Positions 9,632-62,383 of a DNA stretch of 64,000 nucleotides are shown one piece after another. The stretch covers positions 576,122-640,121 of the forward strand of contig OZ242172.1 of NCBI GenBank assembly GCA_965205645.1, given 5' to 3'. Position 1 is the stretch's first letter. Each line of letters starts with the position of its first letter. This DNA comes from Bdellovibrionales bacterium (lineage in GTDB: Bacteria > Bdellovibrionota > Bdellovibrionia > Bdellovibrionales > UBA1609). Under the pieces are notes generated by a model, which searched no databases, had not been told where the DNA came from, and worked only from the letters and a program-made list of their open reading frames with translations. Position numbers and translations under genes: made by a program.

Positions 9632-9688
9632 TTGCCATTGGGTCGGCGAGGACATTTATTTGTTAAAATGATTTACTAGTTTCTTCAG

Positions 9689-9788
9689 TTAAAAATCCAC
9701 CTCAAAAGTTCAGACATGCGTTTTGTTGTAAAGCGGACTTGCAGTCGCTTTGCAACAAAGCCGAACTCGTTTTGAGATGGATTTTTAA
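9689..9788. repeat. B-repeat hairpin element (100 bp)
   Basis: ttaaaaatccacctcaaaagttcagacatgcgttttgttgtaaagcggacttgcagtcgctttgcaacaaagccgaactcgttttgagatggatttttaa. The outer 19 nt are perfectly self-complementary. Confidence 0.85.
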
Positions 9789-9797
9789 TTAAAGAAA

Positions 9798-9875
9798 TTT
9801 ACATGATTTGTAAATATAATATGCGTGCAAGGAATCGCGGTGAAGTCACTCCCCCTTGGGGGGGCTAAGGTCTGG
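9798..9875 (+). repeat. A-repeat copy (short-core variant)
   Basis: tttacatgatttgtaaatataatatgcgtgcaaggaatcgcggtgaagtcactcccccttgggggggctaaggtctgg. Confidence 0.8.
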
Positions 9876-12332: not shown

Positions 12333-12368
12333 TTCAGACATTTGTAAAAATGATTACAAAATTGTAAG

Positions 12369-12486
12369 TTTCTCTATTTAAAAACTCTACTCAAAACGAG
12401 TTCGGCTTTGGTGCAGAGCGACTGTAAGTCTGCTTTGCAACAAAACGCATGTCTGAGTTTTTGAGTAGAGTTTTTAAATAGAGAAA
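12369..12486. repeat. B-repeat hairpin element (118 bp)
   Basis: tttctctatttaaaaactctactcaaaa-cgagttcggctttggtgcagagcgactgtaagtctgctttgcaacaaaacgcatgtctgagt-ttttgagtagagtttttaaatagagaaa. The 28-nt outer arms are perfectly complementary. Confidence 0.9.
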
Positions 12487-12505
12487 TATACATCATAATT
12501 AGTGA

Positions 12506-12574
12506 AGTCGTGACAGGTGTGCAGCGGAGTTGCGGCGAAGTCACTCCCCCTTGGGGGGCGGGGCTTAGGTCTGG
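12506..12574 (+). repeat. A-repeat copy (short-core variant)
   Basis: agtcgtgacaggtgtgcagcggagttgcggcgaagtcactcccccttggggggcggggcttaggtctgg. Shares the trailing ggct(a/t)aggtctgg with the copy at 9798. Confidence 0.8.
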
Positions 12575-12770: not shown

Positions 12771-13913
12771 ATGCGTGGAATTAAAGAAGTATGGAATTTC
12801 ATTTGTGGTGCAGATAAAAAACTTATTCAAAAAGTTTTTGGCATATTAGTCAGTGGTTTTATTTTAACGGCGATTGTGTCAGCGGGCTTTATGTCTTGCA
12901 CACCGAATTTTGATGTGGATTCTGGCAGTTCCAGGGATAGCAATAACAATAGTGATGACGACGATGATGACGAAGATGATGGAGAAAAGTGCCTAGGTCA
13001 CGAAACTTGTGAAAAAATTTGTGAAAAAATTTATTATGCAGGCAGAGATCAAGTGGATTGCCAGGAAGAAGGCAGGAACAAAGTTGGTCGTTTGGATGAA
13101 ATATATGATCTTTTAAAAACAGGCGATTCTAGAGATTTAGAGAAAATTTTCCCAGATGAAGATGGGGTAGAACTAGATGATTTGGAAGATTATTTAAATA
13201 TTGGTATTTCTGGTGTGGAGGATTTGATTGATGAGAATAGTAAGGGTGATGATTATTGGGATGACATAAATAAGTTGGGATCTGTTTTAAAATGGATTAT
13301 TGATGAAGAAGATGTAGCAAATGTGTTAAATGGGTTAGATGATAATGGAGGACATCGTATTTTAGAAGAGCTTCTTGATAGAATGGAGGTTACTAAAGAC
13401 GGCGATTGTATTAGTAAGAATAGCCTTGCTTGTGGTACTAGTCCAACTATTAATCACGTAAATCATTATGACTATGATAGTAATAGTGGCCAAATTGAAA
13501 TTTGTACTGATAATAGAGATCCAACATTAAAAGGATCTGTTGATCTAGTTAATGGCGCTGATATACAATTATATGATGCTTTATCTTGTGTATATAATGA
13601 CTTAAGGGCTAATGGAAAAGATCAAAATGTGTTTTCTTATGCTAGTGTAAAAAATAATAGCATTATTTTTAATATGGCTTATAATTTATTAAATGATATT
13701 TGTGAAAATGTAGATGATCGCGATCCTGATCATCAAAGAGCTTGTAGAAAAGCTTTACTTTGTTGGACAGGTGTTCAAAGTGAAGAAGGTGATGATCCAA
13801 ATGAAAATTTTTTTAGGGAGTATGTGAATGATCATAGAAATGATTTAGAAAAAGATAGCGGTGGTTCTGACTATAATCAATGTCAACCAAGACATTTTGC
13901 CGATTTCTTTTAA
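12771..13913 (+). CDS. Cys-rich acidic secreted lipoprotein, paralog family member 4
   Basis: FMS|C lipobox-like site, poly-Asp/Glu linker, CLGHETCEKICEKIY, LEDYLNIGISG, LKWIIDEEDV, CRKALLCW, C-terminal NQCQPRHFADFF. Closest paralog of member 5. Confidence 0.7.
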   Translation: MRGIKEVWNFICGADKKLIQKVFGILVSGFILTAIVSAGFMSCTPNFDVDSGSSRDSNNNSDDDDDDEDDGEKCLGHETCEKICEKIYYAGRDQVDCQEEGRNKVGRLDEIYDLLKTGDSRDLEKIFPDEDGVELDDLEDYLNIGISGVEDLIDENSKGDDYWDDINKLGSVLKWIIDEEDVANVLNGLDDNGGHRILEELLDRMEVTKDGDCISKNSLACGTSPTINHVNHYDYDSNSGQIEICTDNRDPTLKGSVDLVNGADIQLYDALSCVYNDLRANGKDQNVFSYASVKNNSIIFNMAYNLLNDICENVDDRDPDHQRACRKALLCWTGVQSEEGDDPNENFFREYVNDHRNDLEKDSGGSDYNQCQPRHFADFF

Positions 13914-14360
13914 CCAGTTTTTTTCATTTCCTTTCAGTGCATCTTAAATTAGCAAAAAAATCCATGGAATATTATTATGAAAAATTTAATTCCACAAATT
14001 GTACTAGAATTAGTTAGCCTTATTAATAAAAGGTTTAGTAGTAGTTTGACAGAAAAGGAAAAAGAAAAGGAAAAAGAAAAGCTCCAATTTTTGATTGAAC
14101 AAGTTGAGCAAAAATATAAAGATTTAAAAAATTTCATTCTTTATGTGGCTGTCGGGCAGTTTATTTTAACCATTGTTGCTATGAGTGCTATTGTAACTAT
14201 GGTTGTAAATAAGATTTAATGTGAAACAATATCCAATTCTTTCATAAAATTGATCTTTATAACAATATAGCCGTTTACTCCGCTGCTATTCCAAACTTTT
14301 GTATCTATAGTTTTTTATATTTTCTAATGATCTTAATATGTTTTATACAATGCATTGGCA

Positions 14361-14512
14361 CAGTCGTGACATGCGTGCAAGGATTCACAGCGGCCGGCGA
14401 CTCGCCGCAGACATTTACTTGTAAACTTAATTAGCAAAGTTGTGACATGCGTGCAAAGAACTCGCGGCGAAAATGTCACCGGCAACTCGCCGGCCACTTT
14501 GAAGGGGGTGGA
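14361..14512 (+). repeat. Two tandem A-repeat copies (variant with a CCGGCGACTCGCCGG-type hairpin)
   Basis: cagtcgtgacatgcgtgcaaggattcacagcggccggcgactcgccg... then tttacttgtaaac...gtgacatgcgtgcaaagaactcgcggcgaaaatgtcaccggcaactcgccggccactttgaagggggtgg. Confidence 0.75.
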
Positions 14513-15440: not shown

Positions 15441-15497
15441 CAGCTCATTCAGTGAAAATCACTCAATCTTATGACATACATCAAAAGGGATGTGGAG

Positions 15498-16658
15498 ATG
15501 ACTCAAAAGAAAAATTCTGATGCATTAATAAAGCCAGTTTTTAGTCATTTAACATTTGTCATCACATTGTTTCTACAATCAACCTTTATTAGCTTGTTAT
15601 TAGCACACCCTACATTCGCCCGTTCATCCATGACAGACCGGCCGATCATTGCTGTGGCAACCAATATCGATAGAGAGAGAAAAGGTGTGAATAATGAAAA
15701 AAAATGTATGGGTCACAAAACTTGTGAGATGTGTGAAAAAATTTATGGTGCGGACAATGATAAAATAGCTTGTCAAAAAGAGAGCCTTAACAAAGTAAAT
15801 CATTTGAATAAAATATATGCTTTTTTAAAAGATGGAGATTATGAGGATTGGGATAAATTTTTCCTGGATGAAGATGAAGTGAATCTAAAATATCTAAAAG
15901 ATTACTTAAATATTGGCGATTCCGGTATAGAAAATCTTATTAAGAATCATTGGAGTGAAGATCAACTGATAAAATTCTTACAATTGATTATTGATAAAAT
16001 ACAGGTAGCGGAAATTTTATATAACTTAGCTGGAGGAAAATATCTTTTAAAAGAAATACTTCTAGCAATAAGAAATAAAACCGATCAATGTATTGGAAAT
16101 AACACTCTTAATGATTGTAATGATTCACCACACGGACATTATGGCAGAACTGGTTATGGTGTAGATTATAGTTTAGACGATGACACCGTTAATATTTGTA
16201 CTGAGGATAAAAACCCCAGTTGGTCATATACATTGGATCATCTTTTTCCATTTCCCAAAGAATTCATTTGGAAGAAAAGGAGTTTTACTTTTTTAGATGA
16301 TGATAACACGTCATTATATGACGCTTTATCTTGTTTCTCATTAATAGATAAAAGTAGCTTTTCAATTACACATTACAATGTATTTTCTTATGCTAGTATG
16401 AAAGAAAATGATTTTATTTTTAATATGGCTTATGATTTATTAAATGATACTTGTGAAGATTTTGATACTGATGAGAACGATTATAAACAACTCTGCAAAA
16501 AAGTTTCGTTTTGTTGGATTCATGAAGTAGATGAGAAACAAGGAGAGAGGAGTTTTAAATATCTTGTTGAGTTTGACTATGATGATGGTTTAGAAGGGGA
16601 TAGCGGTGGTTCTAACTATAATCAATGTGCACCAAGACATTTTGCCGAATTCTTTTAA
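15498..16658 (+). CDS. Chimeric paralog family member 5: PstS-derived leader/signal peptide fused to the Cys-rich family domain
   Basis: N-terminus MTQKKNSDAL...LLLAHPTFARSSMTDRPIIAVA is homologous at DNA and protein level to the PstS N-terminus MTQKKRSNLL...LLLATSTLAYSSMTDMPLVAAS. The rest carries CMGHKTCEMCEKIY, LKDYLNIGDSG, CKKVSFCW and NQCAPRHFAEFF. Confidence 0.75.
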   Translation: MTQKKNSDALIKPVFSHLTFVITLFLQSTFISLLLAHPTFARSSMTDRPIIAVATNIDRERKGVNNEKKCMGHKTCEMCEKIYGADNDKIACQKESLNKVNHLNKIYAFLKDGDYEDWDKFFLDEDEVNLKYLKDYLNIGDSGIENLIKNHWSEDQLIKFLQLIIDKIQVAEILYNLAGGKYLLKEILLAIRNKTDQCIGNNTLNDCNDSPHGHYGRTGYGVDYSLDDDTVNICTEDKNPSWSYTLDHLFPFPKEFIWKKRSFTFLDDDNTSLYDALSCFSLIDKSSFSITHYNVFSYASMKENDFIFNMAYDLLNDTCEDFDTDENDYKQLCKKVSFCWIHEVDEKQGERSFKYLVEFDYDDGLEGDSGGSNYNQCAPRHFAEFF

Positions 16659-17572: not shown

Positions 17573-18766
17573 ATGACTCAAAAGAAAAGATCTAATTTGC
17601 TGAAAAATTCGCTCTTCTTTTCTGCATTTTTACGTTTAACATTTGTTGCTGCATGGGTCATAAGCTCAATATTTACTTTGCTATTGGCAACATCCACGCT
17701 CGCTTATTCATCCATGACGGACATGCCACTTGTCGCTGCATCCGCTATCACGCAAATTAAAAAATTTGTTCGCGGAAAAAACCGCCGTCCATTACTCATT
17801 AATGGTGCAGGCGCTTCTTTCCCCTATATCCTGTACTCCAAATGGTTTTCAGAATATCAAAAGATAGATCCTTCTGTGAGAATTAATTATCGCTCCATCG
17901 GAAGCGGAGGAGGAATCCGCCAGTTCTTAATAGGTACTTTAGATTTTGGAGCTACCGATGTGCCAATTATAAAAAGTAAAATGCGCACACTCAAAACACC
18001 TCCACTACATATTCCTACCGCATTAGGCGCTGTGGTTATTAGCTATTATTTACCAACACTGAAAAATACAGATACCCTACAGCTGACACCTGTTATCCTA
18101 GCAGACATTTACCAAGGTAAAATTAAAAAATGGAATCATAAAAAAATAGTGGCCATTAACCCTAAGCTGTCTTTACCAGATCAGCAAATTGTGCCAGTGT
18201 ATCGCGCAGATGGTAGTGGTACAACAGCTGTGTTTACAGAATACCTGGCTCACTTTTCCACAGAATGGCTGCAACAAGCAGGAAAAGGTAAAGCTGTTAA
18301 CTGGCCAACCGGTATCGGAGGTAAAGGGAATGAAGGCGTGATGGGTCTTGTCCGCAAAATACCAGGCGCGATTGGTTACATTGCCTGGAGCTATGCCGCT
18401 AATATCCGATTCCCCACAGCAGCTGTCCAAAATGCATCCGGACATTTTGTAAAAGTTAGTCATGAAAATGCTAGTAACTCCGCTACACAAATTTGGAAAA
18501 AACACCACGACTTGTTTAAACCATTAGCTACTGCCAAAGGCGCTGACGCTTATCCTCTATCCTCTTATACCTACTTGCTTGTGAATCAAAAAATGCTTTC
18601 TCAAAAAGGACTCGCCATCGTAAAATTCCTTAAATGGGCTATGCAAAAAGGACAAACATTTTGCAAACCACTGCATTATATTCCACTTCCTCAACCTGTT
18701 ATACAAGCTACACTTAAACAAATAGATTCCATTTATATACCGAAAGATAATCCTATAAAAAAATGA
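17573..18766 (+). CDS. pstS: Phosphate ABC transporter substrate-binding protein
   Basis: Signal peptide, GSGGGI and YRADGSGTT motifs typical of PstS. Start moved to the ATG at 17573 (MTQKK). Confidence 0.9.
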   Translation: MTQKKRSNLLKNSLFFSAFLRLTFVAAWVISSIFTLLLATSTLAYSSMTDMPLVAASAITQIKKFVRGKNRRPLLINGAGASFPYILYSKWFSEYQKIDPSVRINYRSIGSGGGIRQFLIGTLDFGATDVPIIKSKMRTLKTPPLHIPTALGAVVISYYLPTLKNTDTLQLTPVILADIYQGKIKKWNHKKIVAINPKLSLPDQQIVPVYRADGSGTTAVFTEYLAHFSTEWLQQAGKGKAVNWPTGIGGKGNEGVMGLVRKIPGAIGYIAWSYAANIRFPTAAVQNASGHFVKVSHENASNSATQIWKKHHDLFKPLATAKGADAYPLSSYTYLLVNQKMLSQKGLAIVKFLKWAMQKGQTFCKPLHYIPLPQPVIQATLKQIDSIYIPKDNPIKK

Positions 18767-21277: not shown

Positions 21278-21333
21278 ATATTTTTTTTATAAGTTTTTTT
21301 AAATTAAAAATAGTTTTAGTGATGATACAATCA

Positions 21334-22545
21334 TTAAGCTCCATCTAAAATATTTTTTGCCTTTCGGACGGCATGAACCAATAACTGAATGTCCTCTTCA
21401 TTATTGTAAATAGAAAAAGATGCTCGCACCACACCAGATGGCAAACCATAACGTTTCATCAAAGGTAAACAACAATGATGCCCAGCTCGTACCGCCGCAC
21501 CTGCTTGCGAAATCAACTGACCCAAATCACTACAATGCAAACCGTCTATTATAAAAGATAAAATATTTACCCGTGAAGATGACCGCCCAATAATACGCAA
21601 ACCCTCTATACTCTTTAACTCTGTCTCTGCATAATGCAATAAAGCGGTAGATTTACTTTTTGTTTCCTCCAAAGAACAATTTTGATTGAGAAATTCTAAT
21701 ACCGCACCCAAAGCTAATACCGCACCAATCGCCGGCGTGCCCGCTTCAAAACGATGCGGTACGTCCGCCCATACCGCACTTAACTCATCCACATCCGATA
21801 CCATGCCGCCACCTAACTGATACGGCTGTATATTTTGCATCACCTCTTCACGCGCATAAAGTACCCCCACTCCCTCTGGTGCAAATAACTTATGCCCGGA
21901 AAAGACCAAACAATCACAACCGATTTTTTGCACATCCACCGGCTCCACCGTCATTGCCTGCGCAGCATCCACTACTGTAAGCACTCCACGCTTACGCGCC
22001 CACGCGACTAACTTCTCCACAGGATTGCACGTGCCTAATACATTAGAATAATATACAAAAGAAAATATCTTTGTCCGATCGCTCACTAAATTGTCTAACT
22101 CAGATAATACTAATTCACCCACATCATCTACTGGTAAAAATTTTAACCGTAAATTCCGCCGCTTGGCTAAAGCCTGCCAAGGTAATAAATTAGAATGATG
22201 CTCCATCTGCGTTAGTAAAATCTCGTCCCCCTCCTTTAAAGAATCTCCCAAACACGTCGCTAAAAAGTTAATACCCTCCGTAGCACTCTTTGTAAAAATA
22301 ACTTCCTCTACCTTCGCCGCACTAATCCATTTCCGTACTAGATCCCGTACCCGCTCATACCGAGTAGTTAATTGCGTACTTAAATAATGATCTCCACGAT
22401 GCACATTCGATACCTGCTGTTCATACAATTGCTTTAAAGTGTCCGGTACACACTGAAGCTTTAAAGACGTCGCGGCACTATCTAAGTACACCTGACTCTT
22501 CTGCTTCAAAAATTCCACCTGAGGAAAATGTTTCCGAAAATCCAT
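21334..22545 (-). CDS. sufS: Cysteine desulfurase, SufS type
   Basis: PLP lysine motif SGHKLFAPEGVGVLY and catalytic-Cys motif RAGHHCCLPL. Adjacent to sufD. Confidence 0.9.
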   Translation of the reverse strand: MDFRKHFPQVEFLKQKSQVYLDSAATSLKLQCVPDTLKQLYEQQVSNVHRGDHYLSTQLTTRYERVRDLVRKWISAAKVEEVIFTKSATEGINFLATCLGDSLKEGDEILLTQMEHHSNLLPWQALAKRRNLRLKFLPVDDVGELVLSELDNLVSDRTKIFSFVYYSNVLGTCNPVEKLVAWARKRGVLTVVDAAQAMTVEPVDVQKIGCDCLVFSGHKLFAPEGVGVLYAREEVMQNIQPYQLGGGMVSDVDELSAVWADVPHRFEAGTPAIGAVLALGAVLEFLNQNCSLEETKSKSTALLHYAETELKSIEGLRIIGRSSSRVNILSFIIDGLHCSDLGQLISQAGAAVRAGHHCCLPLMKRYGLPSGVVRASFSIYNNEEDIQLLVHAVRKAKNILDGA

Positions 22546-22728
22546 GTTTTTACTTCCCGTGTTTTTACTTCCCGTATTTTTACTTCCCGTTGCTTCGTGC
22601 TGCTGCAGACTTTGATCTCTAATTACATTTTTACTTCCCGTTGCTTCGTGCTGCTACATGCCCGGATTTCTAATCATGTTTTTACTTCCCGTTGCTTCGT
22701 GCTGCTACATACCCGGATCTCTAATTAT
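22546..22728. repeat. Tandem array between sufD and sufS: 15-bp unit x2 followed by a 51-bp unit x3
   Basis: Units begin (g/a)tttttacttcccgt at 22546, 22561, 22576, 22627 and 22678. The three long units continue tgcttcgtgctgct(g/a)ca... On the gene strand each unit ends ACGGGAAGTAAAAA(C/T), and the last is followed directly by the sufS ATG. Confidence 0.9.
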
Positions 22729-24146
22729 GTGACTTGTGCTTTTTTCACTTCATTCGCTAAATTTAATAATACGCTTTTATTGCGATGAATCATCTGATTT
22801 AAATGCTCCAAGCAACTATCCGCTGGAAACTGATGTAAAACATCCTTTATATAAGCAAATATCAAAAGCTCCCAAGCAGACTTCATGTCCAATCCACGAG
22901 TTTGTAAATAAAATATTTCGTTCGGATCAAAATTTCCCACCGCAGAACCATGCTGCGCCTGCACCTCGCTGCAATCAATCGCTAATTCCGGTTGGATGCA
23001 AGAGTGCGCACGATCACTTAATAATAAATTCTTGGCCGACTGACTGCAATCCACACCCTTTGCCCAAGATTCAACGTGTACCCGACCATGAAAAATACCC
23101 TTGGATTCATCATTCAATATCCCACGGCAAAATTGACGAGAATAACCCCCTGGCTTTAAATGATGCACATTAAACCGATGATCACTCTGATTCTTATTCT
23201 TTAAAATAGATAAACCTAATAATGTACTACGAGCTTTTTCCCCAACATGCACCACATCCGCCCTGTCCCTGGAAAACCGAGAACCTAAGCTAAAATGCAA
23301 ACGATCTATACTTGATTCTTTCTCCATCTCACTAATCGATTGATTAAAATAACAAGAAGAGCCACTGCCTTGCTCCACCCGAATCCATCGTAAAGCCGAC
23401 TGCTCAGAGTGATACACATTGGATACCGTATTCACTACTGCCTGTCCGTAATGAGAAATGTTCTCCACTAAAGTGAGCCGAGCTCCCTTACCCATAAAAA
23501 TAAAATTCCACCCCCCTAAGGGGGTTACTTTCGCCGCGGCTTCATTTACGTTATTGTCACTATCTTGCAAATCATGTTTACCCAGTGTCTCTGCCGACTC
23601 GGCGGCAAATACAGAATGAATGTGCAAAGCCTTAGAAGACTCATACCCATCCGGTATAAATAAAATATACCCACTTGGAAAAGCCCCAGCTAAATGAAAT
23701 AAACCATCTCCATTTCCAGCTACTTTTTTTTCTCCACGAAAACAATCCAATAACCAAGACCAACACGGAAAATCAGCATTCAACTGATCCCAAGTGCACC
23801 AACGCAAACCATCATCAATAGACGCTTCCACTAATTGATCATTATGAAAATGCAAACGATCTACATTTGGAAAATCAGCAATTAACTCTTCATTAATACT
23901 GTGCCGATCACTTACATTATTGCGCTCGGCATTCTGAAAAATGCTACGTAAAATATTCTGCACATAAGTAAACTGCCACCACTTGTCCGAACCCGACGGA
24001 AATCCCTTCTTTAAAAATTGAGCAAAATGCTTGTCCCGCATTTCACCCAATACCCGCCGCGAGTCCTCGGACGATAAGCCAAGCCATCCTTGCCGCTCCT
24101 GCTCAAATTCCTTTTTTAAAAATTCTATCCATCTGTCATCTGTCAT
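22725..24146 (-). CDS. sufD: Fe-S cluster assembly protein SufD (carries an in-frame A-repeat insertion)
   Basis: SufB/SufD C-terminal signature ...AQHGSAVGNFDPNEIFYLQTRGLDMKSAWELLIFAYI. Internal GKHDLQDSDNNVNEAAAKVTPLGG is encoded by the repeat at 23508-23583. Confidence 0.8.
   Translation of the reverse strand: MTDDRWIEFLKKEFEQERQGWLGLSSEDSRRVLGEMRDKHFAQFLKKGFPSGSDKWWQFTYVQNILRSIFQNAERNNVSDRHSINEELIADFPNVDRLHFHNDQLVEASIDDGLRWCTWDQLNADFPCWSWLLDCFRGEKKVAGNGDGLFHLAGAFPSGYILFIPDGYESSKALHIHSVFAAESAETLGKHDLQDSDNNVNEAAAKVTPLGGWNFIFMGKGARLTLVENISHYGQAVVNTVSNVYHSEQSALRWIRVEQGSGSSCYFNQSISEMEKESSIDRLHFSLGSRFSRDRADVVHVGEKARSTLLGLSILKNKNQSDHRFNVHHLKPGGYSRQFCRGILNDESKGIFHGRVHVESWAKGVDCSQSAKNLLLSDRAHSCIQPELAIDCSEVQAQHGSAVGNFDPNEIFYLQTRGLDMKSAWELLIFAYIKDVLHQFPADSCLEHLNQMIHRNKSVLLNLANEVKKAQVT
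23508..23583 (-). repeat. A-repeat copy (long-core form) inserted in frame in sufD
   Basis: ccacccccctaagggggttactttcgccgcggcttcatttacgttattgtcactatcttgcaaatcatgtttaccc. Confidence 0.9.
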
Positions 24147-25844: not shown

Positions 25845-27581
25845 TTAAGAACATTCTAATAAGCGATAAAAATCTGATTGGATTTTTTTTAGCTCTTTGT
25901 CAGATCGGCCGCCAAAACGAAAAGTAAACATGCTCTGTGTATTGGAAAGACGTGCCAGACCCCAAGCTTTCCCCGGAAAACATACCCGCACACCATCTAC
26001 TAAACATAACTGCGCTTCAGAATATTTCGCATAATGATCTTTGACTCGATTCAAAAGTTTGTGTGCCCGTGCTATGTCATTAACCGCTATACGTATCTCA
26101 TTCGTATGAACTCCAATGTTAGTAGGCAGTATTTTATCTAATAACTCTTCTACACGATACACACCACTCTCACATAAAATCCGTAACAAACGTAAAGTTG
26201 CATATACACCATCATCTAAAAAATAACCTTCATCACAAAAAAAGTAATGTCCGCTAAACTCACCACCGAATATCGCCCCTAATGCCAATGTTCGCCGACG
26301 AATTAAACTATGCCCCGACCCCCCAAGGGGGAGTGGTTTCGCCGCGGCTTCATTTACGTTATTGTCACGTCTTTGCTTCTCAAGGGGGAGTGGTTTCGCC
26401 GCGGCTTCATTTACGTTATTGTCACTATTTTGCAAATCATGTTTACCAAGTGCCAACGCAGATTTCTGCGTTTCTAAAAAATCAAAGAACCATGGGGCGC
26501 ATTTTACATCTGCGACAATAACACCGGCATCCTTATTCCGTTTCCATATATCAGAAATAAAAATCGCCATTAGCTCATCTCCATATAGCACCCTACCGGA
26601 TTCACTGATCACGACTAAACGATCCCCATCCCCATCCAAAGCCACTCCAAACTTTGCTCCACAGCTTCTTACCTTCTGACGTAAATCATTTAAATTTTCA
26701 TCTAAGGAAGGATCTGGATGATGATTCGGAAAACGTCCGTCCGGATCTGCATATAACCATTCAGCATTTAAACCTAACTCCTTAAAAACTGCTTGTGCCA
26801 CCGGCCCCGCTGCTCCATTTCCGCAATCCACTACAATGCTTCCCTGATCCTTCCACATTTTCCCTAACTGAGAAAATTTCTTTTTCATTAACTGAACATA
26901 AAAAGATATCACTGTATTATCTAAACTTTTGACTGACTTCTTCTCACGATTGATATTTGTTAAATGTCCACTGTCCGATACACAATGCTTGTCAGATAAA
27001 GATGTGGATTTTGTCTTTGCTAACAAAGAATCATCCGTAGATAATTGAAGGATAATATCTTTTAACTCTTGCAACTTCTCATCACATAAAGTTTCTTCAT
27101 ATACAGAAAATTTAAAGCCGTTAAAGTCAGCTGGGTTATGACTTGCCGTCACCATCACAGAAGCTGCGGTATCAGGAAAAAAATGGGAAGCAACAAAACA
27201 AACCGGAGTGGATACTAAACCTAAAAATTGTATCGGTGCTTGACCGGCAGTGAGTCCCTCTATTAAAGCATTTGTTACGTCTGGACTGCTTAAGCGACTG
27301 TCATGTCCCACTGCTACAAAGCTTAAAGACATAGGTGTGTCTAACAGTTTATCTTTTTTACTACTATGAAATGCCTTTTTGTCTTTTGTGATACTACGTT
27401 CACTGTTATTCCTAATGTTTGTGCGATATGAGATAAACTTAGCAAAAGCTATCCCCAAGTATCGCACGAAATCTAAATCAAAATCTTTTCCATATATTCC
27501 ACGAATATCATTTTTTCTAAAAATATCCGGATTCCATTTCATGTGCTTCAACCTAATATCCATCTCATACTCATTATGCAC
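25845..27581 (-). CDS. Phosphomannomutase/phosphoglucomutase (carries 1.5 in-frame A-repeat copies)
   Basis: Active-site TASHNPADFNGFKF, Mg site ALDGDGDRLVV, GHSLIRR sugar loop. The insertion ALGKHDLQNSDNNVNEAAAKPLPLEKQRRDNNVNEAAAKPLPLGG lies directly before GHS. Confidence 0.85.
   Translation of the reverse strand: MHNEYEMDIRLKHMKWNPDIFRKNDIRGIYGKDFDLDFVRYLGIAFAKFISYRTNIRNNSERSITKDKKAFHSSKKDKLLDTPMSLSFVAVGHDSRLSSPDVTNALIEGLTAGQAPIQFLGLVSTPVCFVASHFFPDTAASVMVTASHNPADFNGFKFSVYEETLCDEKLQELKDIILQLSTDDSLLAKTKSTSLSDKHCVSDSGHLTNINREKKSVKSLDNTVISFYVQLMKKKFSQLGKMWKDQGSIVVDCGNGAAGPVAQAVFKELGLNAEWLYADPDGRFPNHHPDPSLDENLNDLRQKVRSCGAKFGVALDGDGDRLVVISESGRVLYGDELMAIFISDIWKRNKDAGVIVADVKCAPWFFDFLETQKSALALGKHDLQNSDNNVNEAAAKPLPLEKQRRDNNVNEAAAKPLPLGGSGHSLIRRRTLALGAIFGGEFSGHYFFCDEGYFLDDGVYATLRLLRILCESGVYRVEELLDKILPTNIGVHTNEIRIAVNDIARAHKLLNRVKDHYAKYSEAQLCLVDGVRVCFPGKAWGLARLSNTQSMFTFRFGGRSDKELKKIQSDFYRLLECS
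26319..26447 (-). repeat. A-repeat, one truncated plus one full long-core copy, in frame in the phosphomannomutase gene
   Basis: ccccccaagggggagtggtttcgccgcggcttcatttacgttattgtcac, a 12-nt joint, then caagggggagtggtttcgccgcggcttcatttacgttattgtcactattttgcaaatcatgtttacc. Confidence 0.9.
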
Positions 27582-27602: not shown

Positions 27603-27708
27603 CTCCCAAAGAGAGTGACTTTCGCCGTCCGCGAGTTGCGACCCCCCAAGGGGGAGTGGTTTCGCCGCGATTCCTTCGTACTCATGTCACTATCTTGTAA
27701 ATGATATG
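27603..27708 (-). repeat. Two adjacent A-repeat copies (one partial), intergenic
   Basis: ctcccaaagagagtgactttcgccgtccgcgagttgcg then accccccaagggggagtggtttcgccgcgattccttcgtactcatgtcactatcttgtaaatgatatg. Confidence 0.8.
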
Positions 27709-27710
27709 GG

Positions 27711-27828
27711 TTTCTCCACTTAAAAATCTTATTCAAAACGAGTTTGGCTTTGAAGCAGAGCGACTGAAAGCTTGCTCTGCGGCAAAACGCATGTTTGAGC
27801 TTTTGAATAAGATTTTTAAGTGGAGAAA
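27711..27828. repeat. B-repeat hairpin element (118 bp)
   Basis: tttctccacttaaaaatcttattcaaaa-...core...-ttttgaataagatttttaagtggagaaa. Same core as 12369, different but self-complementary arms. Confidence 0.9.
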
Positions 27829-27843
27829 TGACTACCCCTGGAC

Positions 27844-27900
27844 TCCCTCACAAAGGGAGGTGACTTTACCGCAATTTCCTGCACTTATGTCATAATCTTG
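27844..27900 (-). repeat. A-repeat copy (diverged), intergenic
   Basis: ctccctcacaaagggaggtgactttaccgcaatttcctgcacttatgtcataatcttg. Confidence 0.65.
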
Positions 27901-27906
27901 TTCTGT

Positions 27907-28845
27907 TTACAAGTAAATGTTAACAGTGTTCATTGCCCACAGTAAAGCCCGCCGCATCGATTCCGCAGAAGCCTTGTTCTGTCCAAAAATATTTTTAGCG
28001 GTGCCATGACTCACACTAGTTCTTACAAAAGGTAACCCTAAACTCAGTTGAAAACTCTGTGTCCCATGTGCCATTTTAAATGGAATTAAAGCTTGATCAT
28101 GATACAAACAAACATATAGGGAAAAACAAGGCCAATTACTTTTTAAAAAGGCGCTATCCGGTACTAAAGGTCCTGTTACTTCCTTTGACCACTTTTTTAA
28201 ATATAATTTCAGAGTGGATTCTTCGGTGCCTAGTAATCCCTCTTCCCCTGCATGTGGGTTAAGTCCCAATATTGCTATTGGTTTGTTTTGGTAAGTTTCT
28301 GGTAAACACTTTCGTAGATGACAACATAAATGCAAACATCTGTCTAAGTCGTTGGGTGTCCATGTGATTTTCTTTAAAGGAACATGGCCAGTTAACAATG
28401 TCACATTAAAGTAATCCCCTAAGAAAGTCATAAACACTGTCTTTGCTCCGGAAATTCTCTGTAAAAGCGGTGTGTGTCCTTTTTCAGAAAAATGATCTGC
28501 TTGCATTTGTGTTTTAGATAAGGGACCTGTAACCATTATTTCATCAGACGGACTACGGGTGCATCGTTGCGCTACCGTTTCCACCCACTGTGTTGGACGG
28601 GTAACAGAAGCGATATCTAATAATATGTTTTCTGTTTTGGGTGCAGTATTTAAGTCATTTATATTATTGAGTGTAACGATTCGTCCAGGCCATTTAAAAA
28701 TGTGAAATAGATCTTGTCCAACTCCTTGTTGCCTCCATAACACAAATTGTACACCGGTGCATTGGCCTATTGTCGCTAACGCTTTTAAGCTAACTTCCAG
28801 TCCAATACCGTCTGTATCACCAGTGGTGATGTGAATGCGCTTCAT
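27907..28845 (-). CDS. pdxA: 4-hydroxythreonine-4-phosphate dehydrogenase
   Basis: ITTGDTDGIGLEV and GLNPHAGEEG motifs. Downstream of the surA-like gene, the same surA-pdxA order found in E. coli. Confidence 0.85.
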   Translation of the reverse strand: MKRIHITTGDTDGIGLEVSLKALATIGQCTGVQFVLWRQQGVGQDLFHIFKWPGRIVTLNNINDLNTAPKTENILLDIASVTRPTQWVETVAQRCTRSPSDEIMVTGPLSKTQMQADHFSEKGHTPLLQRISGAKTVFMTFLGDYFNVTLLTGHVPLKKITWTPNDLDRCLHLCCHLRKCLPETYQNKPIAILGLNPHAGEEGLLGTEESTLKLYLKKWSKEVTGPLVPDSAFLKSNWPCFSLYVCLYHDQALIPFKMAHGTQSFQLSLGLPFVRTSVSHGTAKNIFGQNKASAESMRRALLWAMNTVNIYL

Positions 28846-33237: not shown

Positions 33238-33840
33238 ATGAGAGATACTATTCAGTGCAGAGTATTTTACTATCTAAAAACCATGGTTTTTTTGTTTGCT
33301 TTATTTCCAATGATTAGTTTCGCATCACCTTTAGAGAATGTATGGGATACATTGTTTCCAACTACTAGAGCAATCTCAAGAAGTGAAGTTCAGAACCTTT
33401 TACAAAATTCTTCTGAAAAAAGTATAATGCATATTCAAACCTATAAAGGATGCGAACCAGCCTTTGTAACTCTTGGAACAAAAGTATGGTTGAGCATGAC
33501 GGCACAAAAGACGGAAAAAAAGACCTGTTCTGTTGCTGTTCATCCAGGCAATAAAATATCCGTTAGTTTTAGCAATAAAACTGTTCTTGTGGCACCAATG
33601 AGCAGTAGAGCGGTCGTTGGTGATATAAAATATAACCTAGCCATTGGTGAGATAGATGGACACAATGTTTTAATGGTTGCATATGATGAAAATGGTACAA
33701 TCTCTTATGCAATATATACTGTTTATGATTTAAATGACAATGTAGTAGATTCTTATCTACAAGATGAATGGGATACATGGAAAGATTCTATTAGATATTG
33801 TGTTATTGCACCTGTATATCAACAATCAATGTGTGATTAG
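33238..33840 (+). CDS. Small secreted hypothetical protein, tandem duplicate copy 1
   Basis: Signal peptide MVFLFALFPMISFA|SP, Cys-containing ~180-aa mature part. Near-identical to the next gene. Confidence 0.6.
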   Translation: MRDTIQCRVFYYLKTMVFLFALFPMISFASPLENVWDTLFPTTRAISRSEVQNLLQNSSEKSIMHIQTYKGCEPAFVTLGTKVWLSMTAQKTEKKTCSVAVHPGNKISVSFSNKTVLVAPMSSRAVVGDIKYNLAIGEIDGHNVLMVAYDENGTISYAIYTVYDLNDNVVDSYLQDEWDTWKDSIRYCVIAPVYQQSMCD

Positions 33841-33882: not shown

Positions 33883-34497
33883 ATGAAATATATCATTAAA
33901 TGCAGGTGTTTTTATTATCTAAAAACCATGGTTTTTTTGTTTGCTTTATTCCCTATCATTAGTTCCGCATCACCTTTAGAGAATTTATGGGATACATTGT
34001 TCCCAACTACTGGAGCAATCTCAAGAAGTGAAGTTCAGAACCTTTTACAAAATTCTTCTGAAAAAAGTATAATGCATATTCGCACCTATAAAGGATGCGA
34101 AGCAGTCCCCTCTGTAATTCTTGTAACTCTTGGAACAAGAGTATGGTTGAGCATGATGGCACAAAAGACGGAAAAAGAGACCTGTTCTGTTACTGTTCAC
34201 TCAGGTAATAAAGTATCCGTTAGTTTTAGCAATAAAACTGTTCTTGTGGCACCAATGAGCATGAAACTGGTCGTTGGTGATATAAAAGAAAACATAGCCA
34301 TTGGTGAGATAGATGAACACAATGTTTTAATGGTTGCATATGATGAAAATGGTACAATCTCTTATGCAATATATACTGTTTATGATTTAAATGACAATGT
34401 AGTATATTCTGCTCTACAAGATGAATGGGATACATGGAAAGATTCTATTAGATATTGTGTTATTACACCTGTATATCAACAATCAATGTGTGATTAG
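33883..34497 (+). CDS. Small secreted hypothetical protein, tandem duplicate copy 2
   Basis: Same sequence as copy 1 apart from scattered substitutions and a 4-aa insertion (AVPSVILV region). The 3' flank tagtattccaataaatagtttcaattccattca is also duplicated. Confidence 0.6.
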   Translation: MKYIIKCRCFYYLKTMVFLFALFPIISSASPLENLWDTLFPTTGAISRSEVQNLLQNSSEKSIMHIRTYKGCEAVPSVILVTLGTRVWLSMMAQKTEKETCSVTVHSGNKVSVSFSNKTVLVAPMSMKLVVGDIKENIAIGEIDEHNVLMVAYDENGTISYAIYTVYDLNDNVVYSALQDEWDTWKDSIRYCVITPVYQQSMCD

Positions 34498-34616
34498 TAT
34501 TCCAATAAATAGTTTCAATTCCATTCATAGAAAATCTATTTTTCCTATCTATTGAATTTTCTGTTTATAACAAGAGCAATTTGAGTTCAACATTCAAATA
34601 TGCTATGACTTCTAAA

Positions 34617-34944
34617 GGGGATTGCGGGTGCTTGCTGAATTTATTTTAATAAATTTAGAGGAAAGTCCGGACTCCAATGGCAACGCAAAAGGTGAAAACC
34701 TTTCCACCGGAAACGGTGCGGACAAGTGGAACAGAAAGTATATCCGAGTCTTTATTGCTGTAATGAGTGGTGAGGATTGCTGGAGTGAAATCAGCTAAAC
34801 TCTGCGTGGAGCAAGATCAAATAAGGAAGTGCTTGAGTACCGCCAATACGATACTTCCGGGTCGATCGCATAGATGAATAAGTGCCTCCTCTGAGCTTTT
34901 GTCGGTTAAGCCAGAGAAGACAGAATCCGGCTTACAGCAACCCC
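34617..34944 (+). ncRNA. rnpB: RNase P RNA, bacterial type A
   Basis: Universally conserved GAGGAAAGTCCGGACTCC (P4 5' strand) and GACAGAATCCGGCTTACAG (P4 3' strand). P1 pairing ggggattgc / gcaacccc. Ends approximate. Confidence 0.9.
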
Positions 34945-35452
34945 TTAAAACCGGCCCTTTTAAAAAATATATCCTGTTTTTTTTTCGATTGTCGTGGCCA
35001 CGCACGTAGAGGATACAATTCCTCAATATCAGCTAAAATAGCAATTTTTAAGTCTTTTCTATACACTTACTATAAAATTTTGGATGTTTTCTATATAGTT
35101 GATATAAATTTTAGGGCTTTTCTATATATTACTGCATATAGTACTTCAATAATATAAAACAAGTAATAATGAGGTTTTAAAAAATATGAATAACCCGAGT
35201 AATCCTTTTAATCCAAGTTCAATAGTAACACCTACATTATTTGCTGGAAGAAGTCAGCAAGTGGTGAATGTTTTAAAAAAACTATCCAATGTGAGGGAAG
35301 GAATCTAAAATCCTTAGAAAGAGAATAAACAAAATTTTTTATTTTTTGCTTATACAAGATTTTCTGTCCTGTATTATCCGCTCCCCTTCGGTCGCAGATA
35401 CTATAGGCCGCTTCTTCGCTTCGAATTCTACCTTTTGTTTTTTAAATAAAAG

Positions 35453-37721: not shown

Positions 37722-37826
37722 CGCCCCCCAAGGGGGGATGACTTCGCCGCGATTCCTCTGCACGCCTGTTACAACTTTGCCGATTATGTTTACAAATAAA
37801 AGCCTGTGGTAACTTGCTGCCGCCAC
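37722..37826 (-). repeat. A-repeat copy plus adjacent variant tail, intergenic
   Basis: cgccccccaaggggggatgacttcgccgcgattcctctgcacgcctgttacaactttgccgattatgtttacaaataaaagcctgtggtaacttgctgccgccac. Confidence 0.75.
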
Positions 37827-40322: not shown

Positions 40323-41612
40323 TTGAAAAAAATGTTTAACGTAAAATTATTTCACACTTGTATAAATATTAGACGATATATTCGTAAGTACTTAAAATAT
40401 ATAGAATTTAATAAAATTTTATCAGAAAATACCTGTCGAGCTTACCATATAGATTTAAGACAGTTGTTAATAAATTATCATCCGGTGCTTGGTAATTTAT
40501 TTTCTTTAAAAGGTTGGAAACTATACACTGATTTGTCTCAGGATGAGTCTGTTTTTGGCGTAGAGAGTGACTTATTTTCAGACATTGTTCATCAGCAGGT
40601 TGGTGGCGGGTTGCTACGGGCACTTACTTGTAAACATGATGTGCAAGATAGTGACAATAACGTAAATGCAGCCGCGGCGAAAGTAACCCCCTCTGGGGGT
40701 GGCAGGTCACCACGGGCACTTACTTGTAAACATGATGTGCAAGATAGTGACAATAACGTAAATGCAGCCGCGGCGAAAGTAACCCCCTCTGGGGGTATGG
40801 ATCCATTAGAGGAGAAGTGGGTAGGGGAGATGATGAAATACAGTTTTAAGAAGTGGGCTTCATTATCTCCGGCATCTCGTAATCGAAAGTATGCTTGTTT
40901 GAAAGCTTTTTTATCTTGGTTATTTGTTCATGGAGGAGTGCAGGTGGATATGCAGAGTTGGATTAAGCTACCACGTGTTCCTCAACGTATCCCTTATTAC
41001 TTATCTGTAGATGAGGCTCTTTACTTAATAAAGACTGTGCAAAAACAGGCAAACGCAAAAGAAAGAGATCGGGATTTATTATTAATTCTTTTGCTATATG
41101 GTGGCGGACTGAGGGTGAGTGAGGCTTGTGGTATGCAGTGGAATCAAGTGGATATAGCGAATGGTTGTTTACGTGTATTAGGTAAGGGTGGAAAAGAAAG
41201 GTTAGTGACAGTGCCAAAAGTGGTGTTAAAGGAGTTAGGTCGCTGTCAAAGTCTTCAGCATGACAAACATAATTTGCAAAGCAATAAAAAGGGAGCAGCG
41301 GAATCGCGGCGAAACGTTCCTCGCGACCCGCGAGTTTTTCCTGGGTTAGCGGTTAGGCAGGCTTATGAGATCGTTCGACGTTGGGGTCAGCGTGCGGGTT
41401 TAAGTAAACCGTTAAGTCCTCATGTTTTGCGACACAGTTTTGCGACACATTTATTAAGCAGTGGATCTGATTTACGTACTTTACAGGAGTTATTGGGGCA
41501 TCGTTCTTTGAGTGCTACTCAAAAGTATACGCACTTACAGATGTCACATTTGAATCGTTTGTTAGAATCTTATCATCCTTTACGTAATCGTCAGCGCGAT
41601 AAATCACGTTGA
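40323..41612 (+). CDS. Tyrosine site-specific recombinase XerC/XerD family (three in-frame A-repeat insertions)
   Basis: LRVSEA (Arg I), HVLRHSFATHLL and LLGHRSLSATQKYTH (catalytic Tyr). Two 32-codon tandem insertions LTCKHDVQDSDNNVNAAAAKVTPSGG in the N-terminal domain and a variant copy in the catalytic domain. Confidence 0.85.
   Translation: MKKMFNVKLFHTCINIRRYIRKYLKYIEFNKILSENTCRAYHIDLRQLLINYHPVLGNLFSLKGWKLYTDLSQDESVFGVESDLFSDIVHQQVGGGLLRALTCKHDVQDSDNNVNAAAAKVTPSGGGRSPRALTCKHDVQDSDNNVNAAAAKVTPSGGMDPLEEKWVGEMMKYSFKKWASLSPASRNRKYACLKAFLSWLFVHGGVQVDMQSWIKLPRVPQRIPYYLSVDEALYLIKTVQKQANAKERDRDLLLILLLYGGGLRVSEACGMQWNQVDIANGCLRVLGKGGKERLVTVPKVVLKELGRCQSLQHDKHNLQSNKKGAAESRRNVPRDPRVFPGLAVRQAYEIVRRWGQRAGLSKPLSPHVLRHSFATHLLSSGSDLRTLQELLGHRSLSATQKYTHLQMSHLNRLLESYHPLRNRQRDKSR
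40617..40796 (+). repeat. Two tandem long-core A-repeat copies (96-bp period) in frame in xerC/D
   Basis: cgggcacttacttgtaaacatgatgtgcaagatagtgacaataacgtaaatgcagccgcggcgaaagtaaccccctctgggggt occurs at 40617 and again at 40713. Confidence 0.9.
41259..41334 (+). repeat. Variant A-repeat copy in frame in the xerC/D catalytic domain
   Basis: catgacaaacataatttgcaaagcaataaaaagggagcagcggaatcgcggcgaaacgttcctcgcgacccgcgag. The tail and cgcggcgaa core are recognisable; the head resembles the partial copy at 27603. Confidence 0.6.
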
Positions 41613-41645: not shown

Positions 41646-41686
41646 ATTTAAATATTCTGCTCAAAAGCTCAGACATGCGTTTTGCC
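41646..41686 (+). repeat. Half B-repeat, left of the A copy
   Basis: gatttaaatattctgctcaaaagctcagacatgcgttttgcc. Confidence 0.7.
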
Positions 41687-41752
41687 CCCCAAGGGGGAGT
41701 GACTTCGCCGCGGCTGCATTTACGTTATTGTCACAGCTTTGCATATTTTGTG
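41685..41752 (-). repeat. A-repeat copy (long-core form), intergenic, flanked by two half B-repeats
   Basis: ccccccaagggggagtgacttcgccgcggctgcatttacgttattgtcacagctttgcatattttgtg. Confidence 0.85.
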
Positions 41753-41770
41753 ATTGTTTCTTAAGGGGGA

Positions 41771-41807
41771 ATCCTGCTCAAAAGTTCAAACATATGTTTT
41801 ATCCCCC
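41771..41807 (+). repeat. Half B-repeat, right of the A copy, same orientation as the left half
   Basis: atcctgctcaaaagttcaaacatatgttttatccccc. Confidence 0.7.
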
Positions 41808-46961: not shown

Positions 46962-46982
46962 GTTATTTAATCAAAATAATGA

Positions 46983-47043
46983 ACTGCGTGCAAGGAATCA
47001 CGGCGAAAATGTCACCGGCGACCTGCCGGCCCCTTTGAGGGAG
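46983..47043 (+). repeat. A-repeat copy (hairpin variant) between convergent genes, overlapping the enoyl-CoA hydratase 3' end
   Basis: actgcgtgcaaggaatcacggcgaaaatgtcaccggcgacctgccggcccctttgagggag. Confidence 0.8.
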
Positions 47044-47785
47044 TTAATAATTTTTTAATTCTAGCTTGAGTGGTTTTAGTTTTACGGGCAGTGTGAATCA
47101 TACTGATTGCCTGAGATTTAATTTTCTTAATAGGACAAAGATAAGCTTTGTTTAATATTCTCTTTGTTTTTTTAACAGCAGTTAGATCTAATTGTTTTAA
47201 GTGTTTCAATAATGTTTGTAAAAAAGTATCACATTGATTTGCACTGCCAATAAAATGCACTAAGCTAGCTTGCTGCGCTTCTTTTGCGGAAAAAGGTAAG
47301 GCGCTTAACATAAAAAATCGTGCCCAGGAAAATGGTATTTTTTTTAAAATAAAAGGGCTAATCATGGAAGGCACTAACCCTAAACGTGTTTCACTAAATT
47401 GAAAGCGTGAACCAAGCTCTGCAATCACTACGTCACATACACTCATTAGGCCAATACCACCACCCATGATAAAACCATGTACCTTTGCAATCACGGGTAC
47501 TTTGCAGTGATCTATTTGTTCTAATAAAGTAAATAATTGGCTTAAGGACTGCTTGCTAAAAGTTTTTTCATTTGTTAGCCATTTTAAGTCTGCACCGCTG
47601 CAAAACGCTTTGCCTTTTCCACTAAGTACAACCGCTTGAACAGTAGAATCTTGCTCAATAGATTTAAAAATTCTGGATAAGCCATGAATGACCTCAGGAT
47701 TTAAAGCATTGCGCTTTTCCGGTCGATTCAAAGTGATAAAAATAATATCTTTATTTTTTTTTAATTCCAGAAGGGATCTAGCCAT
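47012..47785 (-). CDS. Enoyl-CoA hydratase/isomerase family protein (likely methylglutaconyl-CoA hydratase by context)
   Basis: FCSGADLKW and GFIMGGGIGLMSVCDVVIA crotonase motifs. Downstream of the carboxyltransferase gene. The last ~10 codons and the stop lie in an A-repeat copy. Confidence 0.8.
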   Translation of the reverse strand: MARSLLELKKNKDIIFITLNRPEKRNALNPEVIHGLSRIFKSIEQDSTVQAVVLSGKGKAFCSGADLKWLTNEKTFSKQSLSQLFTLLEQIDHCKVPVIAKVHGFIMGGGIGLMSVCDVVIAELGSRFQFSETRLGLVPSMISPFILKKIPFSWARFFMLSALPFSAKEAQQASLVHFIGSANQCDTFLQTLLKHLKQLDLTAVKKTKRILNKAYLCPIKKIKSQAISMIHTARKTKTTQARIKKLLTPSKGPAGRR

Positions 47786-47806
47786 TATTTATCCTTTGCT
47801 CGTGTT

Positions 47807-57075: not shown

Positions 57076-57141
57076 CACCCCCAAAGGGGGTTACTTTCGA
57101 CGCGGCTGCATTTACATTATTGTCACTACTGTGCAAATTAT
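57076..57141 (-). repeat. A-repeat copy (long-core form), intergenic
   Basis: cacccccaaagggggttactttcgacgcggctgcatttacattattgtcactactgtgcaaattat. Confidence 0.85.
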
Positions 57142-57149
57142 ATTATTCT

Positions 57150-57266
57150 CATAGGATTAAATATCCTGCTCAAAAGCTCAAACATGCGTTTTGCCCGCAG
57201 AGCAGACTTAACAGTCGCTCTGCGTCCAAAGCCGAACTCGTTTTGAGCAGAATATTTAATCCTATG
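57150..57266. repeat. B-repeat hairpin element (117 bp)
   Basis: cataggattaaatatcctgctcaaaagctcaaacatgcgttttgcccgcagagcagacttaacagtcgctctgcgtccaaagccgaactcgttttgagcagaatatttaatcctatg. Confidence 0.9.
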
Positions 57267-62172: not shown

Positions 62173-62383
62173 CAGCTTTCTCCTAATTTTTATAATATTT
62201 TAACACACTGCTTATGAGCAAAAATATAAGGTATTCACAACATATCATTCGCTCAGAACCAATGAAATACAATACACTCATGTAATAATTACACCAATTG
62301 ATATAATTAGTATTGTATTGTGATCCAGTTTTTTAATATAATAAATGGATAAAATAAAGATTTTTTTTCAAAAGGAGATTGGA

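Follow-up and report, generated by a model that had tools for sequence, protein, structure and literature searches.

Rickettsia palindromic elements (RPEs) have served for 25 years as the standard example of selfish DNA in essential proteins, and convincing independent cases are, to our knowledge, scarce. Short repeats read in frame within housekeeping genes are given as the hallmark of RPEs (Ogata et al. 2000, as presented in PMC10969869), and in-frame repeats have occasionally been reported also for ERIC, for Coxiella QMITE1 and for Anabaena and cyanobacterial MITEs (PMC10969869, PMC5896051). REPs, which are extragenic by definition, are palindromes of 20-40 bp headed by GTAG or CGTC, and they are associated with RAYT transposases (PMC3733652).

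Here, we analysed a 64-kb stretch of DNA (the window) in which a first-pass annotation had noted a repeat lying in frame within sufD and had likened it to RPEs. The segment is very probably one copy of a lineage-specific short interspersed repeat, which we term A, inserted in frame, RPE-like in character and tolerated by the function of the protein. The interpretation in the first-pass annotation is essentially correct, and the A copy in sufD is not a new principle; it represents an independent RPE-like instance from another phylum and with a different element architecture. Its interest stems from the high intragenic share of the copies, from nested in-frame composites of A with a second element, B, from the probable replacement of a copy at a fixed site, and from a graded series of relatives at 97% nucleotide identity (L001 and L082), 80% amino acid identity (L084) and ~74% nucleotide identity (L083, in which the family is absent at the compared sites). 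With this series it can be tested how elements come to lie in proteins and are lost from them, whether the copies are homogenised by conversion, and what the copies contribute to loop evolution in reduced genomes.

The RPE precedent fits the A copies, which lie in frame in unrelated genes, encode a conserved peptide and occupy loop sites. Relative to RPEs as outlined in the account cited above, A is likewise short, multi-copy and non-autonomous, and lies in intergenic DNA as well as within unrelated housekeeping genes, with a conserved peptide read in frame at points where the fold can accommodate an additional loop; the bacterium that carries A, too, has a small genome and probably lives in association with a host. 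On the same account, however, the A unit is shorter (70-96 nt against about 100-150 nt) and is not palindromic overall, having only a 6-bp terminal hairpin and a folding z of about 0. Moreover, A is directional, with a variable central module, frequent tandem arrays and a coupling to the palindromic B, and its host is Bdellovibrionota-like rather than an alphaproteobacterium. It is by its architecture that A is set apart from the RPEs described there.

With MITEs, A shares its small size, the lack of a transposase, strain-to-strain insertion polymorphism and translational fusion with host genes, which is occasional among MITEs, and B is a classical MITE-like palindrome; A itself, in contrast, has neither terminal inverted repeats nor definable direct repeats. 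The share of A copies inside conserved housekeeping genes (6/16 in the window) lies far above that described for QMITE, which is found mostly in hypothetical ORFs or at gene ends. As in BIMEs and REPs, a few short motifs are combined in different orders into modular mosaics with hairpin-forming units, but A displays no REP trait: 6 of the 16 copies are intragenic, a GTAG or CGTC head is absent, and no RAYT was found in the sequences covered here. Collectively, the A family behaves like RPEs yet fails the structural definitions of RPE, MITE and REP.

A repeat copy is read in frame within sufD

Residues 189-212 of SufD (GKHDLQDSDNNVNEAAAKVTPLGG; nt 23511-23582) derive from a single A copy, which lies on the (-) strand at 23511..23590 with its core at 23511-23581 and is read in frame as (T)LGKHDLQDSDNNVNEAAAKVTPLGG (nhmmer E 3.8e-19). 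The core measures ~70 nt and the copy ~80 nt including its 5′ extension (23511-23590); on the gene strand, the sequence shared with copies in two other genes, one for a phosphoglucomutase/phosphomannomutase (PGM/PMM) and one for a xerC-like recombinase, extends a further ~8 nt in the 5′ direction (..CACTg/tGGTAAAC, read as 'TLGK', 'ALGK' or 'ALTCK'). The earlier placement of the element at 23508-23583 was right in its 24-aa peptide and translation, whereas the element itself extends over about 23511-23590. SufD-type sequence had been noted on both sides of the repeat, and it is indeed found there, reading ...AAESAETL GKHDLQDSDNNVNEAAAKVTPLGG WNFIFMGKG.... That the repeat passes through the gene without breaking its frame was likewise borne out by a stop-free ORF, and that it is a genuine repeat by a 41-mer of the repeat with four matches in the window at <=3 mismatches against 0.00 expected (100 shuffles), and by a family of 16 copies. 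With the xerC-like copies 17 kb away, at 40630-40699 and 40726-40795, the sufD copy shares 94% identity.

A profile built from aligned copies located 16 A copies at 11 loci of the window (E 1e-19 to 4e-4), amounting to ~1.6% of its bases; ten are intergenic and six lie in frame in three genes (sufD, PGM/PMM and xerC-like). The unit is directional, spans 70-96 nt and comprises a constant 5′ module, (G)CACTT..GTAAACATGATTTGCAAGATAGTGACA, a variable middle of ~17 nt that defines subfamilies (ATAACGTAAATGAAGCC in the sufD type), and a constant 3′ module, GCGGCGAAAGTCAC, followed by a CCCCCC-TT-GGGGGG (C6/G6) hairpin. When six copies were folded as RNA, their z scores against shuffles ranged from -0.84 to +0.30 and only the 6-bp terminal hairpin was constant; the label 'palindromic element' was dropped for A, which has no whole-element structure past that hairpin. 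Neither a GTAG nor a CGTC head is present in the A consensus, and no terminal inverted repeats were found in A, whereas B has them. Rfam yielded no match to A, its matches in the window being RNase P RNA and one tRNA only.

Besides the sufD copy, the coding copies consist of 1.5 tandem copies at a 57-nt offset, read in frame as GKHDLQNSDNNVNEAAAKPLPLEKQRRDNNVNEAAAKPLPLGG, at 26319..26452 (-) in the PGM/PMM gene 25845-27581 (ORF, repeat comparison and nhmmer); two tandem 96-nt units at 40602..40795 (+), in frame in the xerC-like gene 40323-41612 (repeat comparison and nhmmer); and, at the second site in that gene, a variant copy (KHNLQSNKKGAAESRRNVPRD), likewise in frame, at 41265..41323 (+; nhmmer E 1.2e-11).

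B is a ~125-nt palindrome with ~35-nt inverted arms, recognised by inverted-repeat matches at 9680..9803 and, as the reference copy, at 12363..12486. Most intergenic A copies, all detected by nhmmer, sit immediately 3′ of a B element, as do those at 9799..9863 (+) and 12492..12558 (+). A 1.5-unit tandem lies at 14353..14480 (+), an A-B-A composite at 27642..27910 (-) (A at 27847-27910 and 27642-27707, B at 27710-27828), and a copy present in L082 but not in L083 at 37724..37793 (-). At 41646..41804 (-), an A copy (41685-41751) is enclosed by two direct B half-arms and matches its L082 orthologue at 69/69 nt. A weak partial copy is located between convergent genes at 46972..47016 (+; E 4e-4); at the equivalent place in L084, B is clustered with three A copies. 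B (57157-57259) is followed by A (57078-57144) at 57078..57259 (-). The borders of B are partial A 5′ modules, not short direct repeats, and no target-site duplication is definable for A, for which there is no clean filled/empty nucleotide pair. Furthermore, neither a transposase, RAYT or reverse transcriptase nor a cognate IS for A or B turned up in the window (64 kb) or in the loci of relatives that were covered (77 kb). A is small and multi-copy, has no transposase of its own, and is polymorphic between strains, as the comparison of the window with L001 and L082 demonstrates.

Copies turn over between sister genomes

L001 and L082, both from one metagenome, share ~97% nucleotide identity with the window. 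At the sufD site, L001 carries an A variant, a complete 125-nt B palindrome and a further A, which together encode 91 aa in frame as against 24 in the window. The A copy at the same position differs between the window and L001 at 14/66 nt (binomial P 3e-9), compared with 37/1347 nt in the sufD flanks, whereas two other orthologous A copies are identical at 69/69 nt between genomes that differ by 2-3% elsewhere. Moreover, the two sufD copies are of different types, 'xer type' in the window and 'B-linked type' in L001. Mere deletion of A′-B from an L001-like ancestor is insufficient by itself as the origin of the window copy, since the copy types differ and 14/66 nt are changed. The excess of differences over the flanks, together with the 94% match to the xerC-like copies, suggests replacement or gene conversion; judged from these sequences, another member of the family probably converted the sufD copy, or took its place, in one of the lineages.

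Other sites differ as well. In L001, pstS holds a reverse-orientation A-family copy, in frame just after the signal peptide and encoding an unrelated peptide; window pstS has no A copy, and the site is also rearranged there. The xerC-like gene of L082 has one A unit against two in the window, with B at the second site, and L082 carries a B between its enoyl-CoA hydratase and carboxyltransferase genes that the window does not have.

The two xerC-like sites could be followed through increasingly distant proteins. With the window as reference (two A units at site 1, a variant copy at site 2), P0070 (97%) has one A unit at site 1 and an A5′-B-A composite at site 2; P0071 (80%) has a remnant and an A5′-B-A-A composite; P0073 (74%), a protein that stops at the contig end, has a variant copy and a partial composite; and P0072 (69%) is empty at both. 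Among xerC-like proteins more distant than P0072, most are empty at both sites, and P0074 and P0075 have short unrelated inserts. Consistent with these empty sites, L083, the locus of P0072, which is syntenic over 21 kb at ~74% nucleotide identity, has no A copy at six window sites. Scanned for exact matches to the A core GTGACAATAAYGTAAATGNNGCCGCGGCGAA, GTDB representative genomes and JGI metagenomes contained none; by exact pattern, the A family was not seen beyond the clade in these collections.

Selection for a function of the DNA or RNA, be it in attenuating or terminating transcription within the gene, in stabilising RNA through the hairpin, or as a place for binding or recombination, would offer another account of A in sufD, and an unlikely one. 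In its favour, the 3′ hairpin of the sufD copy (ACCCCC-TTAG-GGGGGT; 23510..23525, (-)) is followed by native T-rich codons (TGGAATTTTATTTTTAT), together with which it gives a terminator-like score on the gene strand; a similar terminator-like site follows the xerC-like variant copy. The sister-genome sufD copy retains the hairpin through paired changes (CCCGC..GCGGG), and the complete conservation of two orthologous copies described above points in the same direction. As predicted from this hairpin and T-run at its 3′ junction, the sufD copy could also affect transcription. Nevertheless, whole copies fold no better than shuffles, with z between -0.45 and +0.30, no Rfam match exists and the promoter scan found no promoter-like site in the sufD copy. 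Copies may also point either way with respect to genes and form tandem arrays whose number of units varies, and syntenic relatives are without copies at every site examined.

The single open forward frame is shared by the coding copies of the window

One forward frame of A is open and two hold stops, and two reverse frames are open. All six coding copies of the window share the same orientation and the same frame, which filtering by stop codons explains, given the single stop-free forward frame. A special frame-targeting mechanism was considered and rejected on the grounds that the other forward frames hold stops and that a reverse copy is in frame in L001 pstS. The tandem periods within coding sequences (96, 57 and 69 nt) are all multiples of three, whereas the intergenic tandem at 14353..14480 has a period of 76 nt, which is not.

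The insert in the PGM/PMM protein adds ~41 residues relative to P. aeruginosa PMM/PGM, between residues 288 and 304 of the latter, and the domain III match is cut to profile positions 52-110. Similarly, the match to the N-terminal SAM-like domain of the xerC-like protein is interrupted and cut to its first 30 positions. Annotation and structure prediction are affected accordingly: in ~5% of the window genes, loops derived from the repeat disrupt the matches to Pfam domains. Queried with a translated tandem, an exhaustive HMMER search detected the A peptide in further proteins of relatives, namely a pilM-like protein (5 units), an amidase, an exonuclease III (xth-like) and one uncharacterised protein; these coding copies often form arrays and sometimes follow the B-arm peptide LKSSDMRFA. 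The earlier proposal that the repeat is tolerated inside proteins is strengthened by these in-frame copies in PGM/PMM and xerC-like proteins and in the pstS, pilM-like, amidase and xth-like genes of relatives.

The same peptide frame occurs in at least seven unrelated proteins of the clade, as would be expected if the peptide were a functional module (a linker, tag or interaction motif) selected at the amino acid level, with the DNA repeats as a by-product. We consider this very unlikely. Ten of the 16 copies are intergenic, with nucleotide identity comparable to that of the coding ones, and the single open forward frame accounts for the shared peptide without selection. In addition, the L001 pstS copy is read in the opposite orientation and yields an unrelated peptide, copy number differs between near-identical genomes, and the segment in SufD is predicted to be disordered.

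The host gene is intact and the insert falls in a variable loop

The sufD coding sequence (22725..24146, (-); 473 aa) was assigned from its ORF, from Pfam SUFBD_core and NCBIfam sufD, and from an AlphaFold match to E. coli SufD. Its translation is full-length and stop-free; residues 215-431 match SUFBD_core (E 2.6e-52), and the protein matches NCBIfam sufD (E 2.7e-54). The AlphaFold model (mean pLDDT 81.7, pTM 0.86) had as its top PDB matches E. coli SufD 2zu0_B and 5awf_B, from the SufC-SufD and SufBCD crystal structures. The sufS gene directly follows, at 21334-22545, and is itself conserved. Neither sufB nor sufC is adjacent to sufD within the window.

Aligned end to end with its orthologues, the window SufD keeps 35/35 invariant alignment columns, and the flanks of the insert show a dN/dS of 0.14 against the ~97%-identical L001; the same genome comparison revealed purifying selection on sufS and neighbouring genes. 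The sufD gene is still under purifying selection. The alignment comprised 17 proteins, 15 of them from outside the immediate clade at 27-47% identity, and all 15 have a short variable loop at the insert point and no A segment. The insertion was thus seen as extra sequence, as the first-pass annotation had anticipated, and no clean empty sufD site, about which it had also asked, was found in a close relative, the nearest insert-free SufD being 41-47% identical.

These data bear directly on whether sufD might be a decaying pseudogene, or the segment ancestral SufD sequence, the two outcomes named in the first-pass annotation as fatal to its claim. A small genome in a probably host-associated lineage is a setting in which pseudogenes are common, and the separation of sufB and sufC from sufD would fit such a decay. 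The intact ORF, the end-to-end alignment with every invariant residue kept, the dN/dS of 0.14 and the conserved sufS directly after the gene nevertheless argue against a pseudogene, and the absence of the 24 aa from all orthologues outside the immediate clade argues against ancestry, making either highly improbable.

The position of the insert agrees with a tolerated addition. AlphaFold pLDDT falls below 50 at SufD residues 184-206, in a loop between strands 173-181 and 210-218, the latter being the first beta-helix rung in the model; this low-confidence stretch begins five residues before the 24-aa peptide and spans its first 18. The suggestion that the insert lies in a surface loop was thus supported by the model, which places it in a predicted disordered loop before the first rung, and A is accordingly predicted to add a floppy surface loop to SufD. 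Aligned to the orthologue profile, E. coli SufD has a 4-residue gap at the insert point. Another orthologue, P0022, has unrelated long insertions in the same loop, which indicates that the loop is intrinsically tolerant. The functionally key parts of E. coli SufD are the SufC-binding helical domain at its C terminus and, near His360, the face of the beta-helix that meets SufB. Presumably, the insert lies at the opposite, N-terminal end of the beta-helix from these contacts. In all three window hosts the position is compatible with the fold, the segment being extra sequence relative to solved homologues. Removal of the segment before the mature protein forms, through splicing of an intron or intein or through translational bypass, has nothing but the presence of the hairpin to suggest it and a next to negligible probability, as a group I/II intron would need far more than 72-84 nt and Rfam detects nothing, 24-28 aa without Cys/Ser/Thr ... 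His-Asn boundaries is not an intein, and no in-frame stop calls for bypass.

A model for the spread and persistence of the copies

For A as a tolerated repeat, the following course would account for these observations. Copies would reach their sites by a transposition or recombination process, and selection would leave only stop-free insertions of length 3n in tolerant loops. The sufD copy would then be transcribed and translated within the protein, so that the loop joining the final strand of the N-terminal part to the first beta-helix rung, which varies naturally, would grow by ~24-28 hydrophilic, disordered residues, with SufD function presumably kept despite the insert. Surviving copies would subsequently be reshaped by tandem duplication and deletion (through slippage or unequal exchange), by association with the palindromic, MITE-like B, by decay, and by the exchange of sequence between copies, whether through gene conversion or re-insertion. 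The distribution of A and its polymorphism suggest that it is mobile and that its spread is selfish or neutral; the word 'mobile' is circumstantial here, because A has no terminal inverted repeats or definable target-site duplication.

A bolder reading, which we offer tentatively and think rather doubtful, is that A and B together form an undescribed mobile or recombining element with constant ends around an exchangeable middle and without terminal inverted repeats. Such an element would be renewed by copy-to-copy conversion or by re-use of sites rather than by cut-and-paste, and would be a main source of new housekeeping-protein loops in a whole sponge-associated clade with reduced genomes. 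The host contig measures 1.56 Mb, and the nearest named relatives of the host are Bdellovibrionales/Oligoflexia MAGs, with one relative from a sponge metagenome; this small-genome lineage is probably host-associated. We found no description of the A and B repeats or of the host lineage in the literature.

Among the protein-search matches, no second SufD was assignable to the contig of the window, which is weak evidence that the gene described here is the only one. The A-derived peptide is probably present in mature SufD, and the tryptic peptides expected from the insert region are HDLQDSDNNVNEAAAK and VTPLGGWNFIFMGK.

A and B repeats in the window and its sister genome

The palindromic, MITE-like element B is a clean presence/absence polymorphism at the junction of the enoyl-CoA hydratase and carboxyltransferase genes: a copy occupies positions 17582-17700 of the sister-genome locus L082, whereas the same gene pair in the window is separated by merely a 22-nt spacer (47785-47807) without B. 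Moreover, pstS of the sister genome carries a reverse-oriented copy of the dispersed repeat family A, which is read in frame and adds approximately 28 residues past the signal peptide (L001, 10703-10854). The counterpart of this copy in the window (17718-17782) is a short diverged stretch, possibly a remnant left by deletion.

Within sufD, the 3′ hairpin of A is followed by native T-rich codons, together composing a terminator-like site (window 23495-23525, minus strand), and a second such site lies after the variant A copy in the xerC-like gene (41320-41344, plus strand). Each site may cause attenuation of transcription inside its gene.

A further relative with A and B repeats, 80% identical and represented by loci L084 and L085, derives from a sponge metagenome (SRR1576521). 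Taken with the contig size of 1.56 Mb, this origin is a hint of host association and genome reduction in the clade.

Other repeats and insertions

The stop codon of sufD is separated from the start of sufS by a 180-nt spacer that consists almost entirely of three 51-nt tandem units with 84-90% identity (window 22577-22727); the sister genome has a comparable array (L001, 3812-3966). The 51-nt repeat is distinct from both A and B. Between sufS and an nfu-like gene, the sister genome also encodes a GmrSD-type (type IV restriction) gene (L001, 5242-6960); the equivalent site in the window (21282-21332) is without it.

The RNase P RNA region is doubled in the sister genome, with both copies (L082, 960-1342 and 3393-3773) matching window positions 34589-34970. 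Because these copies bracket an insert of approximately 2 kb that encodes an AAA_14/DUF4143 ATPase, the arrangement suggests that an element inserted itself at rnpB and duplicated its target in the process.

Two paralogous gene sets, neither with any Pfam match, are located in a region of the window dense in A and B repeats. The first pair (12771-13913 and 15471-16658; 380 and 395 aa) shares 70-89% nucleotide identity in blocks, and the second, arranged in tandem (33238-33840 and 33883-34497; 200 and 204 aa), shares 91-93% identity. Additionally, 15-nt tandem repeats form a long array (63172-63486) within the gene for Cu/Zn superoxide dismutase (62345-63646), where they encode a pentapeptide-repeat extension past the SOD domain.
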